From NCBI GenBank assembly GCA_964492845.1, contig CAZBMZ010000001.1:273643-337642 (forward strand): a DNA stretch of 64,000 nucleotides. The letters run 5' to 3'. Below, in pieces: positions 11,485 to 63,526 of the stretch (its first letter is position 1; the number at the start of each line of letters is the position of its first letter). Source of the stretch: an uncultured Clostridia bacterium (GTDB lineage Bacteria; Acidobacteriota; Blastocatellia; Chloracidobacteriales; JADJPF01). The position numbers were made by a program, and so were the translations under genes. The notes below the pieces were generated by a model. It was not told the DNA's origin. It searched no databases and saw nothing but the letters and a program-made list of their open reading frames with translations.

Positions 11485-14400
11485 ATGAACACTATTATTT
11501 CAACCTACAAAGCAAAACAAGATCTAAATGAAAGTACTATGAATATAAACTCAGCGGAAAAAGTCAAAGAAATATTTGGACAAGCTTTAGAAATAGCTAA
11601 AGAAAATAGAAATGAGTTTTTAGCTACAGCTTGTTACCAAAATCAGGATTTATATAAAGAAGTTTTTTCTTTGCTTGTTGCACATGAGGAAGCAGAATCA
11701 TTTTTAGAAAAACCTGCTGCTAACTTTGCTGCTAAATTGGTTAAACATGAAAAAGAGAATTTAGCTAGTAACAGTAAAGAAGCTTTTTTAGAACAACTTA
11801 CAGGACGTGTTATTGATGGAAAGTATTTAATAGAAAAACAACTGGGCCAAGGTGGAATGGGAGCAGTTTATCAAGCTATACATCTTGGTACTAAACGACC
11901 TGTAGCATTAAAAGTAATTGCCCCTCAATTTATGGCACACACTGAGTTTGTAGAACGCTTTAAACGAGAAGCTGAAGCTGCTGGACGGCTTTCTCATCCT
12001 AATGTTGTTAATGTTACTGATTTTGGTATTGCTGCCTTTGGTTCGGCTCAAATTGCTTATTTAGTAATGGAATATCTAAAAGGTTTGACTTTAGGAGCTT
12101 TACTAAAGAAAAAAGGAAAGCTACCTATTAGTTTTACGATTGATATTTTAGAACAAGTTTGTTTAGCTATTGAGGAAGCACATAGCCAAGGCATTATCCA
12201 TCGTGACCTAAAGCCGGACAACATTTGGCTAGAGCCTGATGGTAGAGGTAGTTATCACGTCAAAGTGCTAGATTTTGGCCTTGCTAAACTACATTCCACA
12301 CAACCTACAACAAATCTACCCGCTTCTATAAGTAATCTGCTTCCTACAGTAGACCCAAATAAAATTTCTTTATCCTTTGATTATCAAAAGATTAAAACTA
12401 ACAAACAGCAACCGTCTGATAATGAAAGTGCAACTGTTTTTTATGATGAAAAAGATACTAAAATTATGGAGCCATCACAAACAGCAGGTAATTTAGATCC
12501 TCAGTCCGTTCCAGAATGGTTAACTCGTGTTGGGATGGTTTTAGGAACGCCTCTTTATATGTCTCCAGAACAATGTAGCGGTCAACCATTGGAAAAAAGT
12601 TCAGATATTTATAGTTTGGGTGTAATTGCCTATGAAATGCTAACAGGGGAAGCACCTTTTACAGGTAGTATGCAAGAATTAATTCAAAAACATATAGAAA
12701 TAGCTCCAATACCTTTACAAAAGAAAAGAAAAAATATTCCTTCTGCAATAGCTGATTTAATAATGACAGCTTTAGCTAAAAAGCCACAAGAGCGCGTTAT
12801 TAGTGCTAAAGCTTTTGCTACAGCACTTCGCGCTAACTCTGAAGGGGAAATCCCTTTAATACACCAAGCTTTTGGTATTTACTGGAAAGAATTTTTTCCA
12901 ATAGCAAGAATTTCTATTGTAATAAACTTTATTTTTATCTTGTTTAGTAGTCTACTTACAGCAAGTTTAATTCAACTAAATTTTACTTTTCCACTTGAGG
13001 GTGTTTTTCAATTAATTTGGTGGGTTTTTCCTTTACTTGGTATTTTGTTAACAGGCGAAGTAAGCAAAGGAGCATTTACTTTAGCTGTTAAACAATTTCA
13101 AGAAACAGGTGCTATTTCTTCAACTAAAGTAATTTCAGGTTTAAATAAACCTCTAAGCCAAATACTTATTACTGCACTACAAAATTACTTACTAGCAATT
13201 TCGCAAATTTGGAAATTCGTTTTTCCAGCTTATCGCTCTTTAGTTTATTCTTCATTTTCTAGCCCAAGTTTAGTATTGGAAAATAAACCGCCTTATCAAG
13301 TCAGACAATCTTCTAAAGAATTAGTAACGAAATTCTATTCTCTAGCTTCTAGCTTAAAATTAAGATTTTTAATTACTAAGGTTATTAGTTTTTTACTTTT
13401 CTTAGTTAGTTTTATGGTTTGTTATGTTAGTTTGGGACAATCAGAACAGTATTCTGTAACTATTTCTTTGATAGCAACAATATTATTGCCAGGGCTATTT
13501 ATGATTATAGTTAACCCATTAGTTGATATGGCAACAGCATTGCTTTATTTCAAAGCTAGGGAAGCTAATGGAGAAATTGTCTATCAACAAAAAGGTTTAG
13601 AAGAAATAGAAGTTTCTGAGAAATTAAAATTTTCCCGCCGTCGCAAAGTTTTAATTGCAACATCTTTAGTTTTCTCAATTGTGTTTTCTAGCTTTTCTTA
13701 TGTTCTGATTATTCCTCCATTTGGCAAACCTTTGGCTGCTGAACGTCCAGTTATTGAAAAACTATCAAATGAAGAAAATGCTTGGTTTGAATATGATTTA
13801 GCTCTACAAGATATGTTAGAGTTTCCTATAGGCTTTAATTACAGCAATAACAAACCTTCGCAAGAATTTGTTAGAGAAATGATAAGTCAACAAATAAAAA
13901 ACCCTGGTTTTTCTAATTTAGAAAAAGTGGCTTTGAGAGAAGAAGATTTTAATGAGCAACAACTGTCTTACTTGGATAGCCATAAGGAGGCTATAAAGCA
14001 TTTACTTAAAGGTGCAAAACGTCCTAAAGCTCAGTTTTATAATGAATTACCGGCTACAGCAACATCTTTAACCCCTAGCTTACTACAAATACGTGCTTTA
14101 ACTATTTTAGCTGCTGCAGAAGTTCGCCGTTTACTAGATCAAGGAAAAACACAAGAAGCTGTAGAACTAGCTCTAGCCAATTATAAAATGGTTACAGATA
14201 TTGGAGCCGAAGCTAACACAACTTTAATTTCTAGCTTGATTTCTATTGTATGTCGTGCAATTGCAGCAAAATCATTACTTGCAGTAATTTATTTAGGCAC
14301 TACAACAGCAGAAATGGACAAGGAAATTGCTAGACGTGTAGATGAGCAAGATCGTCGTATGCCTAATGCTTATCAAACTCTTGTTTGGGAAACTCAAGCT

Positions 14401-15051
14401 ATGGATATTTCTATGGAAGAGGTCTTAATAAAACGTAAGTATTCTTCCCTTAATCAAGAGTTCTTCATTTATACTTCTTCTAGCAAAGTTCCATGGGCAA
14501 GAGCTTTTCCAGGCTTATGTATTAGAACTTATAATAGTTTGCGTACAATTAACCAACAGTATTTGCAAAAAGTTAGCAGTGGTTTAGAAAATTGGGATTT
14601 TGCTTCTACACAAGAAGTTTATCAGGAGTTGCTTAATAGAGAGTTAAAGGATATCTTAGGTTTATCTCCTAGCGATACTATTGCTCGTAGTATGTTTTAT
14701 ATTTCTGTACCAAACATGTTATCTACAATGAAAAGTTTATATGTAGGTAATTCATTTGGTAAAGGAGTTACAATTTTTGCTGCTGCTTCAGCTTATAAAA
14801 AAGAACATGGAAAATTTCCTGATACTTTGGATTTAGCCATTAATGGTTTAGGTCTTAATCCTCAAATTGATGTAGCCACTGACAAAAAAGTAGGTTATCG
14901 CTTAGAAGATGATAAGCCTGTTATTTGGTTTGCTGGTGTTGATGGTCAAGATAATAATGGAAAAATAGCTTATCCAGCAAATGAACGAGATAAGCCTACT
15001 TTTGGTAAAGACTTAGTTTATAGATATGGAAAATATCCTCTTATAGATTAA
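11485..15051 (+). CDS. Membrane receptor Ser/Thr kinase (ECF-associated type) with multi-TM region and extracytoplasmic domain
   Basis: N-terminal VKEIFGQAL...FL..AC....L..EV.SLL.AH extension typical of kinases paired with TIGR02999 sigmas; GQGGMG, VALK, HRDLKPDN, DFG, GTPLYMSPE; start moved to ATG after AAGGAGG. Confidence 0.93.
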   Translation: MNTIISTYKAKQDLNESTMNINSAEKVKEIFGQALEIAKENRNEFLATACYQNQDLYKEVFSLLVAHEEAESFLEKPAANFAAKLVKHEKENLASNSKEAFLEQLTGRVIDGKYLIEKQLGQGGMGAVYQAIHLGTKRPVALKVIAPQFMAHTEFVERFKREAEAAGRLSHPNVVNVTDFGIAAFGSAQIAYLVMEYLKGLTLGALLKKKGKLPISFTIDILEQVCLAIEEAHSQGIIHRDLKPDNIWLEPDGRGSYHVKVLDFGLAKLHSTQPTTNLPASISNLLPTVDPNKISLSFDYQKIKTNKQQPSDNESATVFYDEKDTKIMEPSQTAGNLDPQSVPEWLTRVGMVLGTPLYMSPEQCSGQPLEKSSDIYSLGVIAYEMLTGEAPFTGSMQELIQKHIEIAPIPLQKKRKNIPSAIADLIMTALAKKPQERVISAKAFATALRANSEGEIPLIHQAFGIYWKEFFPIARISIVINFIFILFSSLLTASLIQLNFTFPLEGVFQLIWWVFPLLGILLTGEVSKGAFTLAVKQFQETGAISSTKVISGLNKPLSQILITALQNYLLAISQIWKFVFPAYRSLVYSSFSSPSLVLENKPPYQVRQSSKELVTKFYSLASSLKLRFLITKVISFLLFLVSFMVCYVSLGQSEQYSVTISLIATILLPGLFMIIVNPLVDMATALLYFKAREANGEIVYQQKGLEEIEVSEKLKFSRRRKVLIATSLVFSIVFSSFSYVLIIPPFGKPLAAERPVIEKLSNEENAWFEYDLALQDMLEFPIGFNYSNNKPSQEFVREMISQQIKNPGFSNLEKVALREEDFNEQQLSYLDSHKEAIKHLLKGAKRPKAQFYNELPATATSLTPSLLQIRALTILAAAEVRRLLDQGKTQEAVELALANYKMVTDIGAEANTTLISSLISIVCRAIAAKSLLAVIYLGTTTAEMDKEIARRVDEQDRRMPNAYQTLVWETQAMDISMEEVLIKRKYSSLNQEFFIYTSSSKVPWARAFPGLCIRTYNSLRTINQQYLQKVSSGLENWDFASTQEVYQELLNRELKDILGLSPSDTIARSMFYISVPNMLSTMKSLYVGNSFGKGVTIFAAASAYKKEHGKFPDTLDLAINGLGLNPQIDVATDKKVGYRLEDDKPVIWFAGVDGQDNNGKIAYPANERDKPTFGKDLVYRYGKYPLID

Positions 15052-15081
15052 TCATTCTCTCATTCCTAATCCTACTTGTAT

Positions 15082-15110
15082 TAGCCTAGTTAGAAATTTT
15101 AACTAGGCTA
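15082..15110. terminator. Hairpin between convergent kinase and ECF genes
   Basis: TAGCCTAGTTA/TAACTAGGCTA. Confidence 0.65.
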
Positions 15111-15677
15111 TTTTATACTTTTTAACTCTCTATAAAGCCTAGCCTTAGCCATACTCCATTCCCGATTAGCGGTTGCAGGAGAAATTTCTAACACTTCAGC
15201 AGTTTCTTCAATAGAAAGCCCTCCAAAAAAACGTAGCTCTACTATTTGGCTTTGTATTGGATCTACCACAGCAAGTTTAGTTAATGCGTCATCTAAAGCA
15301 ATTAAATCTATATCAGGTGGAGCTTCTGATAAACCTATAACAGTTTCTAAAGGAACTTTTTGGTCACTGCCACCACGTTTAAGACGGGTGCGTCCCCTAG
15401 CATGATCAATTAAAATACGCCGCATTATTTGTGCCGCAGCACCAAAAAAGTGAGAACGATTTTTCCAGTCTACTTGAGATTGATCTATAAGCCTAATATA
15501 AACCTCATGCACAAGTGCTGTAGCCTGTAATGTATGGTTAAGTCGTTCCATTCTCATATAGTAATTAGCCAATTGATGTAATTCGTCATAAACAATAGCC
15601 ATTAATTGTGCTAAGGCTTCTTTGTCTCCACCACTACAATTTAATAACAATTGAGTTACATTACTTGATGAATGCAT
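15108..15677 (-). CDS. ECF sigma factor, TIGR02999/ECF43-like (kinase-activated type)
   Basis: VTQLL..GD.EAL, HTLQATALVHEVY, HFFGAAAQIMRRILIDHAR, KRGG, VELRFFGGLS.EETA. Confidence 0.92.
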   Translation of the reverse strand: MHSSSNVTQLLLNCSGGDKEALAQLMAIVYDELHQLANYYMRMERLNHTLQATALVHEVYIRLIDQSQVDWKNRSHFFGAAAQIMRRILIDHARGRTRLKRGGSDQKVPLETVIGLSEAPPDIDLIALDDALTKLAVVDPIQSQIVELRFFGGLSIEETAEVLEISPATANREWSMAKARLYRELKSIK

Positions 15678-15792
15678 GGTTTAATCCTTTCCTAATTGGC
15701 TAATTTTATATTATTTGCTAATTTTATAGTCACTGCTTTAATCTACCTAAATATTTTTATGATTATTTGTTAGCTGGGAACTAATATAGTTT

Positions 15793-16641
15793 ATGAATTT
15801 TGATGCTTTACTACCAACAGGAACTATTTTGGCTAATCGTTATGAAATTTGCAATCCTTTAGGTGAAGGGGGAATGGGCATAGTCTATTTAGCAAAAGAT
15901 ACAAGGCTTAATGACTTTAGAGCTATTAAACAAATGGCTGCTGAATATTTAAGCATTGAAGAATATACAAAAGCTGTTAGCGATTTTCGTCGAGAAGCAG
16001 AACTACTTTCTAAAATAAAACATCCTTCTATTCCAAGGTTTTATGATTATTTTGTTGCTGATGGTTATTATTATTTAGTAATGGAATATATTACGGGTAT
16101 AACCTTACTGGATTTACTAGAGCAAATTCAAAAACCTATTTCTGAAAAACGTGCTACTAAATGGGGAATCAAACTTTGTGAAGTATTAAGCTATATTCAT
16201 AATTATGAACCACCGATAATTTACCGAGATATGAAACCAGCTAACGTAATGTATAATAAAGAGTTAAACCAACTATACATTATTGATTTTGGTACAGCTA
16301 GATTTGTAGCCGCGCTACAAATGGTAGATGTTACTGCGGTTGGGACGTTGGGTTATGCTCCACCAGAACTTTTTCACGGTATTGTAAGACCTGAAACAGA
16401 TATTTATTCCCTAGGTGCTACACTAATTCATTTATTAGTAGGTAGATGTCCAAACTTTAGCCTTAATTATGGGTTTAACTTTGCTCAAAACCCAAGCCCC
16501 AACCAACTTAACCCAAGTATTTCTCCACAAATGGATGAAATTCTAGTAAAAGCAGTTTCTATGCGTCCTAGCGATCGCTATTCTTCAGCAGAAGAGCTAA
16601 AACAAGCTTTAATTAATCATTTAGCTACTATTTTAAGCTAA
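15793..16641 (+). CDS. Ser/Thr protein kinase, catalytic domain only
   Basis: GEGGMG, AIK, YRDMKPAN, DFG, GTLGYAPPE. Confidence 0.9.
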   Translation: MNFDALLPTGTILANRYEICNPLGEGGMGIVYLAKDTRLNDFRAIKQMAAEYLSIEEYTKAVSDFRREAELLSKIKHPSIPRFYDYFVADGYYYLVMEYITGITLLDLLEQIQKPISEKRATKWGIKLCEVLSYIHNYEPPIIYRDMKPANVMYNKELNQLYIIDFGTARFVAALQMVDVTAVGTLGYAPPELFHGIVRPETDIYSLGATLIHLLVGRCPNFSLNYGFNFAQNPSPNQLNPSISPQMDEILVKAVSMRPSDRYSSAEELKQALINHLATILS

Positions 16642-16642
16642 A

Positions 16643-17635
16643 TTAATTATTTGCTTTTTGAGCAGACTTAAAACTTGAACCACTGACCCCAGGTTGATCA
16701 AACTGCTCCATAAATTCTGGTAATGTAGGTTCTTTCTGCATCTCTATTCCTTTAGTAATTGCCCAACGATGCAACCAAGAAACCCCAACTTTACCAGTAT
16801 ATTTATCAGGTAAATTGTAAGCTTTATCTTTTAATGCTTCTTCTAAGGAAATAAATTGATAATTTCTACCCTTTAACATTTCTATTAATTTATCTAAATG
16901 CTCAGCATTTAATGAATTAGCATGTAAAAGTAGAATTTGAGGCACTTCATACCCAACTACATCTAAGGAAAGTTTCTCATAAAATGCAAACATTTTTTCC
17001 ATATAAGGAATATATTCTGCTACTACACGATCAGCAGTTTTTTGATCATTTTGTGCTTTGGCTTTGCGATAAACACTAGCAAACAACCATTCAGAATTAT
17101 CAATTGTTACAGGAGCAACAACATAGTTTTGATTTAAGAGAAATTTTTCAAAAGCTGTTTTAGTTTCTAAATCTGGGCCAGTATTTAGAAAAGGATGACG
17201 AAAATATTTTACTTTTCTATTTTTAGCCAAAGTATTAGTAATTTTTTCACCTTGTAAAACATTTTCTTGAAAATCTGTTAACGAAGTACGGTAAAAATAG
17301 GGATGTGAATAGGTATGATTACCAAGTTCAAGACCAGCATCTATCCATAACTGCAAAATAGCAGTACGTTCTTTTAATTCATCATTTTGATAAAGCTTAC
17401 TTTCATTAACAAATCCAATAATAGGAATTTTATTTTCACTAATTTGATTTATCAATTTGCGAGTCATTTCTTTTAGTGGTTTAATAGCTTCCTGTTGGCC
17501 TTGTTGAGGTAAATCATCAAAAGTAATAGACACCTGTCTTTTGATAGGTTTTGTTGATGGGACTAAATTTGCTGTAGTAGAATTGACAAAAGTTATTGAT
17601 AGTAAAAACAGAAAAACGATTAATAATCTAAACAT
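16643..17635 (-). CDS. Exported polysaccharide deacetylase (CE4/NodB)
   Basis: TFDD, NHTYSH, FRHP, LLLH motifs; signal peptide. Confidence 0.88.
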   Translation of the reverse strand: MFRLLIVFLFLLSITFVNSTTANLVPSTKPIKRQVSITFDDLPQQGQQEAIKPLKEMTRKLINQISENKIPIIGFVNESKLYQNDELKERTAILQLWIDAGLELGNHTYSHPYFYRTSLTDFQENVLQGEKITNTLAKNRKVKYFRHPFLNTGPDLETKTAFEKFLLNQNYVVAPVTIDNSEWLFASVYRKAKAQNDQKTADRVVAEYIPYMEKMFAFYEKLSLDVVGYEVPQILLLHANSLNAEHLDKLIEMLKGRNYQFISLEEALKDKAYNLPDKYTGKVGVSWLHRWAITKGIEMQKEPTLPEFMEQFDQPGVSGSSFKSAQKANN

Positions 17636-19107: not shown

Positions 19108-19779
19108 TTAGTTGTAATTAGGTGTAGGGCCAAAATTTGAACGCTTATCAAAAGTAACTTTTTTAATTGTAATTTTTTCTGCTGGGCGTTCTGTTCCTGA
19201 TTGAGTTGGAGAATTTGAAATTATCCCTACTACATTCATTCCTTCTATAACTCGACCATAAACCGTATATTGTCCATTCCATTCAGGTTTAGCTGATTCA
19301 CAAATAAAAAATTGACTTGTAGCACTATTAATATCATTTCCTCGACGTGCAGCCGAAAGAATACCTCGCACATGTGGACGGGCGTTAAATTCTGCTGGCA
19401 CTGTAGCCTGGCCTGGTTGACCCATTCCCCAACTTTCTGGCGGGCCACTTTTGCTATTTGGATCTCCACCTTGAATAATTACACCAGGAATAATACGGTG
19501 AAATGCTATTCCATCATAAAACCCCTCTTTAGATAATTTCTTAAAATTTTCTACATGTTTGGGTGCTTCATTAGGAAAAAACTCAAGCACTATTCTGCCT
19601 ACATCCGTTTCTAAAATTGCTACTTCATCATCAACTTTATCTGAAGGTGTAGCATTAGGATTAGGTGAAGTGTTGTTAGTGGGGGTAGTTGTTCTAGTGT
19701 CATTTTCACAAGCAAGCGCAAAGATTGATAAAAAGAGGAAGAGTAAAAATAATAATGTTTTCACTTGTACTTTAAGCAT
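19108..19779 (-). CDS. Cyclophilin-type peptidyl-prolyl isomerase, lipoprotein
   Basis: FALAC lipobox; FHRIIPG.IIQGGDP, SATSQFFI, YTVYGRV. Confidence 0.93.
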   Translation of the reverse strand: MLKVQVKTLLFLLFLFLSIFALACENDTRTTTPTNNTSPNPNATPSDKVDDEVAILETDVGRIVLEFFPNEAPKHVENFKKLSKEGFYDGIAFHRIIPGVIIQGGDPNSKSGPPESWGMGQPGQATVPAEFNARPHVRGILSAARRGNDINSATSQFFICESAKPEWNGQYTVYGRVIEGMNVVGIISNSPTQSGTERPAEKITIKKVTFDKRSNFGPTPNYN

Positions 19780-21265
19780 TAGATTTACACCTTTCTTCCA
19801 AAAGATTTTTAAGAATTTCGTTGAGCATTTGAGGATTGGCTTTTCCTGCTGTAAGTTTCATGACTTGACCAACAAAAAAGCCTATTAAACTTTGTTTACC
19901 TTTGCAGTATTGTTCTAACTGTTTAGGGTTTTCATCTATAACTTTAGCGGCAATATTTTGAATTTCTGTTATGTCTGTTATTTGTATTAGTCCTAGTTCT
20001 TCAACCAAAACTTTAGGTGATTTGCCGCTTTGAAACATTTTTTCAAATACTTCTTTAGCCATCTTGCCGCTAATTGTGTTATTTGTAATTAAATTAATTA
20101 GCTCTCCTAAATCAGTAGGCTTAATAGGACAAGCGGTAATCTCTAAGTTAGCATTTTTCAATTCTCCTAAAAGCTCGTTTAACACCCAATTAGCTGACAT
20201 CTTAGCATTATTAGAGCTTTTAACTACTTCCTCATAATAATCTGCCATTTGCCGAGATTGAGTTAAAATTATTGATTCTTCTAAGCTTAGTTTATATTCT
20301 TGTTGAAAACGCTCTCGGCGTGCTTCTGGTAGTTCTGGCAATTCTTTAGCGATCTCTCTTAAAAATTCATTAGAAACAATAATTGGAGGCAAATCAGGTT
20401 CAGGAAAATAGCGATAATCATGAGCTTCTTCCTTACTACGCATTACGTAAGTTCGACCTTCGCGCTCATTCCAAAGCCTGGTTTCTTGGCTAATTCGGCC
20501 ACCTTCTTTTAATACTTTAATTTGGCGGGCAATTTCATAATCTAGGGCTTTTTGTAAAAATCGGAAAGAATTTAAGTTTTTAATTTCTGTCTTAGTGCCA
20601 AGTTTTTCTTGTCCAACTGGTCGCACTGAGACATTAGCATCACATCTTAAACTTCCTTCTTCCATGTTTCCATCACAAACGCCTACATAAATTAAGGTTT
20701 TTCGTAAATACTGGACATAATCATAAGCTTCCCAGCTACTACGAAAATCAGGTTCGCTTACAATTTCTGCTAGTGGAACACCACTACGATTTAGGTTTAC
20801 ATAAGATTTAGTGTCAGACTCTAACATCCCTTCATGCAAGGATTTACCAGCATCTTCCTCTAAATGTAAGCGAGTAATGTTAAAACGTTTCTTTTTCCAT
20901 TCAACAGGTCTGCCCTGATCATCTCTTGGACTAGTAAGAATTTCTACCCAACCATTTTTAGAAAATGGCTCATCATATTGGGAGATTTGATAACCTTTTG
21001 GTAAATCAGGGTAAAAGTAGTTTTTACGAGCAAAAATAGATTTGTTATTTATTTGTAAGTTTAATGCTGTAGCTGCTTTGGCGGCCATTTCCAAAACTTT
21101 TTTGTTAAAAACCGGTAACGCGCCCGGCATTCCTAAACAAACTGGACAAGTATCAGCATTTGCTTCACCACCAAATTGAGCCGAACAACCACAAAAAATT
21201 TTAGTTTGTGTAAGTAGTTGAGCATGGATTTCTAACCCAATTACAGCTTCATAAACTTTATCCAC
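19772..21265 (-). CDS. gatB: Asp-tRNA(Asn)/Glu-tRNA(Gln) amidotransferase subunit B
   Basis: IGLEIHAQL, RKNYFYPDLPKGYQISQ, HLEEDAGK, SLRCDAN, DYRYFPEPDL. Confidence 0.98.
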   Translation of the reverse strand: MDKVYEAVIGLEIHAQLLTQTKIFCGCSAQFGGEANADTCPVCLGMPGALPVFNKKVLEMAAKAATALNLQINNKSIFARKNYFYPDLPKGYQISQYDEPFSKNGWVEILTSPRDDQGRPVEWKKKRFNITRLHLEEDAGKSLHEGMLESDTKSYVNLNRSGVPLAEIVSEPDFRSSWEAYDYVQYLRKTLIYVGVCDGNMEEGSLRCDANVSVRPVGQEKLGTKTEIKNLNSFRFLQKALDYEIARQIKVLKEGGRISQETRLWNEREGRTYVMRSKEEAHDYRYFPEPDLPPIIVSNEFLREIAKELPELPEARRERFQQEYKLSLEESIILTQSRQMADYYEEVVKSSNNAKMSANWVLNELLGELKNANLEITACPIKPTDLGELINLITNNTISGKMAKEVFEKMFQSGKSPKVLVEELGLIQITDITEIQNIAAKVIDENPKQLEQYCKGKQSLIGFFVGQVMKLTAGKANPQMLNEILKNLLEERCKSNA

Positions 21266-21433
21266 TTTGATACCTCAATTATAGATATAGAATTGAAAAT
21301 AGAAGGGGTTATTGTAACTAAGCCGGCAGAGAAAAAAAATTAATTTAACCGGAACAAGGAATTTCGGAAAAAAAGGTTGCCATAGCAAAGAAAAACGATT
21401 AAAAATCTCTTCGCCGTAAAAAGCTTAAATAAT

Positions 21434-21779
21434 GGGCCGTTAGCTCAGTTGGTAGAGCAGCAGACTCTTGTTCTTTGTAAATTAGGAGCGTTTAATGGAA
21501 ACATTAAACTGAAAAATGTGGCTATATGCTGGGAACCCCTTAGAGCTTTAAGTACGAGTCAATCGTAAAAATCTTAAAGATTGGGCAATCAGCAGGCAAC
21601 TCTTAAAGTAATTATATAAATTTTAAGAAAGCCCTCAGAGACTATACGCCACACACCCAAACAGGTTTTGCTGTGGGTGATGAGATAGTCCAGACTACAA
21701 CGCTTAAATCTAAAGCGGCTAGCGAAAGTTAGAGTGGTATGTAATCTGCGGGTCGCTGGTTCGATCCCAGCACGGCTCA
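21434..21779 (+). tRNA. tRNA-Lys(CTT), intron-containing (exon 1 21434-21468, exon 2 21742-21779); CCA not encoded
   Basis: Joined exons give a cloverleaf: acceptor GGGCCGT/ACGGCTC+A, D-arm GCTC/GAGC, anticodon stem GCAGA/TCTGC with loop CT-CTT-AA, T-arm GCTGG-TTCGATC-CCAGC. Confidence 0.93.
21469..21741 (+). ncRNA. Group I self-splicing intron, 273 nt, no homing endonuclease ORF
   Basis: P4 TGCTG/CAGCA, P3 TGTGGC/GCCACA, P7 GACTA/TAGTC (CAGAGACTATA; GATAGTCC), terminal G, U.G at the 5' splice site. Confidence 0.93.
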
Positions 21780-21798
21780 TCAATAAAATCAATAACTT

Positions 21799-21826
21799 AA
21801 AGCCATCAATCATAGGTGGCTTTTTT
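21799..21826 (+). terminator. tRNA terminator
   Basis: AAAGCCA/TGGCTTT plus T-run. Confidence 0.65.
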
Positions 21827-21949
21827 AGTTTTTATCTCAAAATTTTTAAGGAAAATTAATAGCTTAAAAAGCAAAAAGGGAGATAACTTTATCTCCCTTA
21901 AAAACCCACCATATTTTATTTATTTTGACACAGGTTTGACTATTCTAAA

Positions 21950-63309: not shown

Positions 63310-63526
63310 CTCTTAAGCCCCAACGGGGCGACAGATATATGTAGCGTAGGGCGTAAGCCCTACGTATTATAACGAGAAATTCCCGAAAGCCCCAGCGAGG
63401 CGACATAGCCTTTTCTTAACATTAAAAAAACTCTTACGCCCTTTCAGGGCTTGAAAAAACTTAGCTATTATTTCCTAGGATTGAACCCCTAAGCTACAGT
63501 TATGTCGCCCTTTCAGGGCTTAAGAG
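63310..63526. repeat. Composite REP/REPIN-like element made of inverted REP units
   Basis: Termini CTCTTAAGCCC/GGGCTTAAGAG; GCCCCAACGGGGCGAC and GTCGCCCTTTCAGGGC palindromes. Confidence 0.75.

Follow-up and report, generated by a model that had tools for sequence, protein, structure and literature searches.

How does a housekeeping transfer RNA (tRNA) gene come to be invisible to a standard gene finder, what interrupts it, and is the interruption of a kind not seen before? These questions are raised by a locus on the forward strand of a 64,000-nucleotide (64-kb) stretch of contig CAZBMZ010000001.1 (assembly GCA_964492845.1), the whole of which is called the window here, where a tRNA-Lys(CUU) gene at 21434-21779 (+) is split by a 273-nt group I intron at 21469-21741. 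It is very probable that a group I intron of the bacterial tRNA type, inserted between nucleotides 35 and 36, interrupts a chromosomal tRNA-Lys(CUU) gene here, and that this intron, which lacks an open reading frame (ORF), was gained recently and, as we infer, is removed by splicing. The gene is made up of three parts:

21434..21468, + strand: exon 1, tRNA-Lys(CUU) nucleotides 1-35; 35 nt, ending ...GACUCU, the last two being C34 and U35.
21469..21741, + strand: group I intron without an ORF, 273 nt; matches RF00028, absent from congeners, omega-G at 21741.
21742..21779, + strand: exon 2, tRNA-Lys(CUU) nucleotides 36-73; 38 nt, starting UAAUCUGC, with CCA not encoded.

When 21469-21741 is removed and the exons are joined, ARAGORN calls a clean tRNA-Lys(ctt). 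There is a T both at 21469 and at 21742, which leaves the position of the intron ambiguous by one base; only the reading 21469-21741 has a terminal G together with a U21468.G21485 pair, and this resolves the ambiguity and places the insertion at 35/36, inside the anticodon. At default settings ARAGORN reports 0 tRNA genes across the 64-kb window and, with introns allowed, it locates the ends of the gene, misplaces the intron and miscalls the product as Thr(cgt). An earlier note on this DNA had given the exon and intron coordinates, placed the split of tRNA-Lys(CUU) between nucleotides 35 and 36, and expected standard tRNA finders to overlook the gene; on re-reading the sequence all of its coordinates proved correct, the split is borne out by the joined exons and by empty sites in congeners, and the default ARAGORN result agrees with the expectation.

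The empty sites came from a BLAST comparison of the 346-nt gene to 60 relatives. In all five same-genus genomes exon 1 and exon 2 abut without interruption, which sets the insertion point at 35/36; four of the five match both exons of the window at 100% identity, and in the remaining one (G001) exon 1 is 100% and exon 2 95% identical. Among the same-family genomes the exons abut in two of three, and the third, 83% complete, shows exon 2 only. The protein of the neighbouring gene (19775-21274, minus strand) is 82-96% identical in four congeners, marking the locus as syntenic, the DNA alignment with congeners contains a single clean 273-nt gap, and the spacer and terminator of the nearest congener are nearly identical to those of the window. 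The intron thus appears, from these alignments, to have been gained in the window's lineage after its split from the five sampled congeners. Isolated copies of the 3' part of tRNA-Lys(CUU) were also seen at G005:C504 (L171 ~1935-1975) and G002:C349:1634-1671, the G005 copy beginning in the anticodon loop and being preceded by unrelated DNA and a minus-strand gene. Such an isolated 3' part resembles the repeat that an integrative element leaves behind when the tRNA gene serves as its attachment site; a second, split copy of the gene in congeners was considered and rejected, no group I match being found in the G005:C504 or G002:C349 stretch.

What occupies the site in the window is recognisable as a ribozyme. 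The Rfam model Intron_gpI (RF00028) matches 21465-21702, a region of 38% G+C, over model positions 1-253 with 76.6 bits (E 1.1e-17), compared with a gathering score of 50. A model of 14 helices, running from P1 to P9a with P7 as a pseudoknot and P8 as two segments, was written on the window sequence, in which 74 of 74 modelled pairs are standard, and was tested on an alignment (A3) of the window intron and 27 relatives, i.e. 28 sequences. Across A3, 96.7% of 2064 cells are paired, compensatory changes affecting both sides occur in 31 of the 74 pairs, and 0 of 500 shuffled controls reach any of five measures. Pairing falls to 35-44% when the 3' partners are shifted by 1-3 columns, a control that favours the model since the latter was drawn from one A3 sequence; the compensatory counts are independent of that. 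The minimum free energy fold of the intron alone (-75.3 kcal/mol; z = -3.49; 0 of 200 shuffles as stable) recovers P2-P6, P8, P9 and P9a, and the terminal G, in A3 column 748 directly 5' of the 3' exon, is a G in 28 of 28 sequences. There is direct support for the boundaries, for the fold by way of covariation, for the empty sites in congeners and for the relatives considered below. The elements of the fold, with compensatory pairs as counted in A3, are:

21465-21470 with guide 21483-21488, + strand: P1; U21468.G21485 marks the 5' splice site.
21481..21484, + strand: P10 guide AUUA, complementary to exon-2 bases UAAU (21742-21745).
21490..21509, + strand: P2 hairpin of 8 bp with GAAA loop 21498-21501; 6 of 8 pairs compensatory; present in the minimum free energy fold.
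21517-21522 with 21648-21653, + strand: P3, enclosing the P4-P6 domain; 98.2% of cells paired, 1 compensatory pair.
21527-32/21589-94, + strand: P4; invariant in A3.
21537-39/21583-85, + strand: P5; 2 compensatory pairs.
21546-52/21573-79, + strand: P5a; 4 compensatory pairs.
21553-56/21564-67, + strand: P5b, a helix of the 14-helix model.
21595-97/21631-33, + strand: P6, a helix of the 14-helix model.
21601-07/21622-28, + strand: P6a; 6 compensatory pairs.
21608..21621, + strand: loop L6, site of the ~440-nt endonuclease-ORF insert of relatives (A3 columns 166-623).
21640-44 with 21686-90, + strand: P7 pseudoknot, containing the presumed guanosine-binding site; 100% paired.
21654-58/21675-79 and 21661-64/21671-74, + strand: P8; 4 compensatory pairs.
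21701-05/21713-17, + strand: P9; 3 compensatory pairs.
21719-23/21728-32, + strand: P9a with GAAA loop 21724-27; 4 compensatory pairs.

The core of P1 pairs CUCU (21465-68) with GGAG (21485-88) and is extended by U21469-A21484 and G21470.U21483, and the closing pair of P7 is A-U in 14, G-C in 10 and U-A in 4 of the A3 sequences. Most of what the earlier note had read from the letters survives these analyses: the covariance-model check that it proposed confirms a group I intron, the P1 pairing with U.G at the 5' splice site stands, P2, P3, P4, P7 and P8 all belong to the covariation-supported model, and there is indeed no endonuclease ORF in the intron, the longest stop-free stretch being 50 amino acids. 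Its P10 fared less evenly; the AUUA/UAAU pairing is possible, but a length of 4 bp is not conserved among related introns.

Whether this host and site are new was addressed with a pattern scan of a one-genome-per-species collection, the pattern consisting of two core motifs, then a G, then the start of exon 2. Both motifs are common to the Lys intron and to a second intron of the same genome (described below), and exon 2 had to start TAATC, so that the counts are uninformative on other tRNAs. At least 119 stretches matched, and 80 loci among the matches listed were analysed, to which the counts of hosts, guides and ORF forms given below refer; exon 2 of each locus was joined by script to all candidate ends of the 5' exon in turn, and a join was accepted when ARAGORN read a tRNA with the joint at 35/36. 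In this way 77 of the 80 loci were resolved into at least 57 tRNA-Lys(CUU), at least 17 tRNA-Lys(UUU) and at least 3 tRNA-Asn(GUU) genes, all split at 35/36; L055, L063 and L094, for which neither Lys nor Asn was called, were dropped, the match lying at the edge of the locus in L055 and L094. Judged by record title, the 57 Lys(CUU) hosts among the matches listed comprise 40 Acidobacteriota (27 of them labelled Pyrinomonadaceae and one Chloracidobacterium), 15 Pseudomonadota, 1 Bacillota and 1 without a name. Asn(GUU) introns at 35/36 were seen in Gemmatimonadota and in a Flavobacterium metagenome-assembled genome (MAG), and isolate genomes with Lys(UUU) 35/36 introns belong to Acetobacter, Gluconacetobacter and Gluconobacter. 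Rfam was run on 18 of the 80 loci: 8 match at the gathering score, and 5 of 8 others that were re-scanned match at 34-45 bits, while L081, L076 and L078 give no RF00028 match at E <= 0.01 and L057 and L048 lay outside the re-scan. The ORF-bearing L081 and L076 are kept as members via alignment A3, in which they are collinear with the window intron, and L078 by the exon-joining script alone.

The suggestion of the earlier note that a Lys(CUU) host in a probable acidobacterium might be an undescribed combination of host and site finds no support in these numbers, at least 57 other species having a tRNA-Lys(CUU) split at 35/36 and at least 40 of them being Acidobacteriota; the survey of tRNA-Lys in other genomes has now been run, same-site introns turn out to be common, and the inference of novelty fails. 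A BLAST search of the intron against 400 other same-phylum genomes found no same-site intron, and core matches of at most 101 nt in 6 genomes, a null that does not mean absence from the phylum, since the pattern scan found at least 40 in Acidobacteriota-labelled genomes. In one of the six genomes the match lies within a 23S ribosomal RNA (rRNA) intron; a group I intron of 64.2 bits was seen inside a 23S rRNA gene at L037 1456-2143 (G128:C26), in a 1.9-Mb genome of the same phylum.

The relatives place the window intron within a family. Ten ORF-less relatives of 264-282 nt are 78-84% identical over the full length (best among the matches listed: L111, 84%), and core identity to the nearest relatives reaches 87%, while a second, shorter subfamily at the 35/36 site (207-243 nt) has only the core in common with the window intron. 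In a tree of 259 core columns the window intron falls inside an unresolved Acidobacteriota clade, separated with 100/100 support from four Methylococcales introns. All 58 Lys(CUU) introns, the window's included, have GGAG as P1 guide; in Lys(UUU) hosts the guide is GGAG in 12, GAAG in 3, GAGG in 1 and GGGG in 1. For the Asn(GUU) hosts, the scripted call is GCAG in L075; in L048 it is GCGG at a downstream site, which seems spurious, a GCA guide with C32 unpaired being likelier by eye, and the same GCA reading applies to L083, in which the script finds no guide. The guide base opposite nucleotide 34 therefore changes, on this comparison of host tRNAs, along with nucleotide 34. P10 is mostly 2 bp long in the 77 introns with a guide (58 introns); 14 have 1 bp, 4 have 4 bp and 1 has 6 bp.

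Some of these relatives retain what the window copy lacks. Eleven, of 708-716 nt among the matches listed, represent the same intron enlarged by a ~440-nt insert in L6, and contain ORFs of 157-199 amino acids (L081 2519-3031, L076 4818-5315 and nine other loci). The two ORFs scanned against Pfam both belong to PF11645 (E 1.9e-13 and 6.2e-17), the family tabulated for I-Ssp6803I and PDB entry 2ost in the part of PMC3424549 available to us; in PDB, neither one ORF nor a 10-ORF profile found any chain by sequence. The ORF begins in L6, runs through P6', P7, P3', P8 and P7' and ends inside or beyond P9, and by reading on through the core it has its C-terminus (the last ~35 codons) co-encoded with the ribozyme core. 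In the window, the frame from 21610 resembles the ORF C-terminus, mostly through overlap with the conserved core. Six further introns of 324-338 nt, among the matches listed, hold ORF remnants only. ORF-bearing, remnant and ORF-less forms are intermixed in the tree, and its well-supported branches cannot be reconciled with fewer than 3-4 changes of state, as would be expected of repeated ORF loss, and the window copy is best read as an ORF-less derivative. A PF11645 search of the window's 97%-complete genome gave no match, and the same search was positive in three of three genomes with ORF-bearing relatives. Near-identical intron and ORF occur in both Methylococcales and Acidobacteriota, which suggests transfer between phyla.

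These features, viz. two subfamilies sharing one site, an L6 endonuclease frame passing through the core, repeated ORF decay and a Methylococcales sister clade, also underlie a bolder and only tentative proposal, that the tRNA-Lys 35/36 introns form a large clade never described in words, of which the window holds a very recent invasion. Were it true, the filled and empty pair would be a natural before-and-after case for how an intron lacking an endonuclease of its own becomes fixed. Within the genus the site exists both with and without the intron, and across the wider clade ORF-bearing, remnant and ORF-less forms represent every stage of the homing cycle at one tRNA position.

The pathway that we propose for the window gene would begin with transcription of a ~346-nt precursor, in which the intron would fold into P1-P9 with the P3/P7 pseudoknot. 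Free guanosine would attack 3' of U35, held in its U.G pair with the guide GGAG; the terminal G (21741) would then occupy the guanosine site, and ligation of the exons would restore the anticodon CUU. RNase P, 3' trimming and CCA addition would complete the tRNA. By origin, the intron belongs to the large clade at the same tRNA-Lys site, some members of which have the PF11645 endonuclease in L6.

Twenty public sequencing runs contain part of the stretch, and four were examined by their assembled contigs. RNA-library contigs from three runs of three studies cover 21430-21779, 21444-21787 and 21448-21727 and leave the flanking spacers uncovered, a weak hint of an intron-containing transcript of precursor size. 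A 2135-nt DNA contig from a soil metagenome, of another study, spans all 801 bases from flank to flank with 13 differences. Two other signals were set aside: apparent junctions in run X2 have other letters between the two sides and come from tRNAs of other organisms, and the high coverage of 21416-21469 stems from exon-1-like sequences of many organisms.

The remainder of the genome bears on how the window gene is to be judged. The assembly comprises 6.3 Mb in 64 contigs with 34.8% G+C. It contains no SusD family, so that Bacteroidota is an improbable origin, and the data agree with the probable acidobacterium of the earlier note. RF00028 matches the assembly at only one other place, at 43.5 bits, below the cut-off. 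This second intron, of 311 nt, lies at G000:C2:283007-283317 (L002 1462-1772, minus strand) between nucleotides 33 and 34 of an initiator-type tRNA-Met(CAU); its joined exons give tRNA-Met(cat), the host reads as a canonical initiator-type tRNA-Met(CAU) with the intron at the classical fMet position, and the two introns of the genome agree at 138 of 262 aligned positions (53% identity). Default ARAGORN finds 84 tRNA genes in the genome. Default tRNA finders overlook both the housekeeping tRNA-Lys(CUU) and the initiator tRNA on account of their group I introns, so that such genomes seem to lack essential tRNAs. In a same-class genome, a group I intron of 58 bits (L043 975-1178, G045:C164) precedes a normal tRNA-fMet exon 2; the sequence upstream of the intron does not read as a normal exon 1. 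On contig C52, positions 11985-17392 hold 38 tRNA genes in 5.4 kb for nearly all amino acids, including three Met(cat), three Lys and one SeC-like call; this array diverges from the chromosomal tRNAs and may be a mobile tRNA array or phage-derived.

Several points weigh against a functional, recently gained intron. The C52 array includes a strongly divergent second Lys(ctt) gene (C52:12811-12884), with which selection for splicing is not guaranteed; the interrupted gene is the housekeeping copy, though formally not the sole Lys(CUU) gene. No spliced junction of this gene was seen in the public-run contigs, which cannot show a 73-nt product, and the RNA-library contigs may contain DNA. The metatranscriptome contig of run X16 has three consecutive G>A changes at 21531-21533 with no partner change listed; on the helix model these would weaken P4, and they may reflect strain variation, an error in the contig or a copy that is inactive. 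P10 is weakly conserved across the clade. Finally, the route by which an ORF-less intron entered is, like splicing, one that we infer, and the exons are 100% identical to those of the congeners with no co-conversion tract.

Among the alternatives, the one that survives best, and which we still regard as improbable, is that the intron, though correctly folded, splices fast enough in the cell only with help from a host protein (chaperone or splicing cofactor). Protein assistance is common among group I introns, and this one is A+U-rich, as the G+C figures of its RF00028 match and of the genome indicate, with only 4 exon pairs in P1 and a P10 that is short across the clade. Against such a need stand the complete core, the GAAA loops L2 and L9a, the well-supported helices and the stability of the predicted fold, as well as the behaviour of small bacterial tRNA introns, of which that of Azoarcus self-splices according to the part of PMC13168695 available to us. 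Considerably less probable is a dead allele, in which the intron no longer splices and the divergent C52 copy supplies tRNA-Lys(CUU). That second gene and the lack of an observed splice junction speak for it, but all modelled pairs are standard in the window copy, the U.G pair is intact, as are the terminal G and the invariant stretches of the core, the exons match the functional-looking genes of congeners at 100%, and the C52 copy is strongly divergent; a group I intron also splits the genome's housekeeping initiator tRNA, which argues that such introns splice in this cell. An artefact of assembly or binning, by which foreign DNA was joined into the tRNA gene of a draft genome of 64 contigs and which would fit an intron carried by none of the sampled relatives, is largely refuted and barely worth entertaining, since the independent soil contig spans flank, exon, intron, exon and flank, the three RNA-library contigs also join exons and intron, and the boundaries obey group I rules to the single base.

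An interrupted housekeeping tRNA-Lys(CUU) gene, from which the intron is presumably spliced, is the preferred reading. Around it, the following features were noted:

21377..21406, + strand: sigma-70-like promoter candidate upstream of the tRNA gene, TTGCCA, an 18-nt spacer and AAAAAT; 9 of 12 positions match, and the candidate is not above chance (2 such sites in the region compared with 1.9 expected).
21799..21833, + strand: intrinsic-terminator-like hairpin with a T run after it, which the nearest congener conserves.
63316-63364, minus strand: Acido-Lenti-1 RNA motif (RF01687), elsewhere in the window; 40.2 bits compared with a gathering score of 37.

Considering how this intron relates to known systems, the widest frame is the survey of 80,413 bacterial genomes with tFind by Williams 2020 (bioRxiv 10.1101/2020.01.27.920355), which found 5292 split tRNA genes and recognised, in addition to the four classical types Leu.3Ug, Arg.5Ug, fMet.2Ug and Ile2.5Ug, 17 new ones, giving 21; a database of group I introns marks the four classical types as subgroup IC3, as reported there. 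All follow the same rules as the window intron (a U at -1, a terminal G and one of 8 anticodon-loop positions), which in that nomenclature would be 'Lys.4Ug'. The word 'Lys' is not in the running text of that paper, whose list of types, not seen by us, is confined to an image-only Table 1 and Fig. 3; a Lys 35/36 type is likely to be among them, given that Lys(UUU) 35/36 introns occur in isolate genomes of the genera named above, viz. Acetobacter, Gluconacetobacter and Gluconobacter. Text searches of the literature found no description in words of a genuine group I intron in tRNA-Lys, nor any paper for the earlier note's statement that 35/36 insertions were reported mainly for Patescibacteria Asn/Asp tRNAs. 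The available part of the tRNAscan-SE 2.0 paper (PMC8450103) mentions only fMet and Ile2 introns, and the introns treated in the available part of PMC11915505 lie in transfer-messenger RNA. The 'group I introns' of 22 to 49 nt described for cyanobacterial tRNAs, including Lys(CTT), in the part of PMC5733544 available to us are too short for a ribozyme and were rejected as a precedent.

Phage introns were likewise considered and rejected as close relatives: in 12 records only 23-29% of the intron, i.e. the core, is matched, at 79-94% identity, and the three matches inspected lie between or inside protein genes and none in a tRNA gene. Acinetobacter phage YMC13/03/R2096 (KM672662.1) has two adjacent, unannotated RF00028 matches (L033 1433-1702 and 1818-2040; 78.8 and 96.6 bits) between its HNH endonuclease and terminase large-subunit genes.

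Among the characterised systems, the cyanobacterial tRNA-fMet intron (fMet.2Ug, I-Ssp6803I) is likewise a group I intron in the anticodon loop of a bacterial tRNA, and its endonuclease is of the same family, PF11645, as that of the window intron's relatives; it differs in site and host, 33/34 of tRNA-fMet as opposed to 35/36 of tRNA-Lys. The introns of Azoarcus tRNA-Ile(CAU), Agrobacterium tRNA-Arg(CCU) and tRNA-Leu(UAA) are also small and ORF-less, lie in the anticodon loop and have a U at -1 and a terminal G, whereas the classical Ile2.5Ug/Arg.5Ug/Leu.3Ug sites are 36/37 and 34/35 and the window intron is longer, with P5a/P5b and P6a extensions. In its two GAAA loops (L2 and L9a) and anticodon-loop location it may resemble the Azoarcus type. 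The closest likeness is with the same-site tRNA-Lys(CUU) introns, such as those of Pyrinomonadaceae MAG loci L111, L105 and L081, Methylovulum (L076) and Mesorhizobium sp. CAU 1741 (L109), which share the tRNA, the site, the guide GGAG and the helix set; compared with these relatives the window copy has no ORF, a P10 of 4 bp rather than the usual 1-2 bp, and a host genus that is otherwise without the intron. The catalytic RNA, the anticodon-loop location and the endonuclease family are all already known, and no new category is called for; with the window intron a widespread mobile element has recently been gained locally, and what is specific to the window is the lineage-specific gain of an ORF-less copy at a site that is empty in all sampled congeners.

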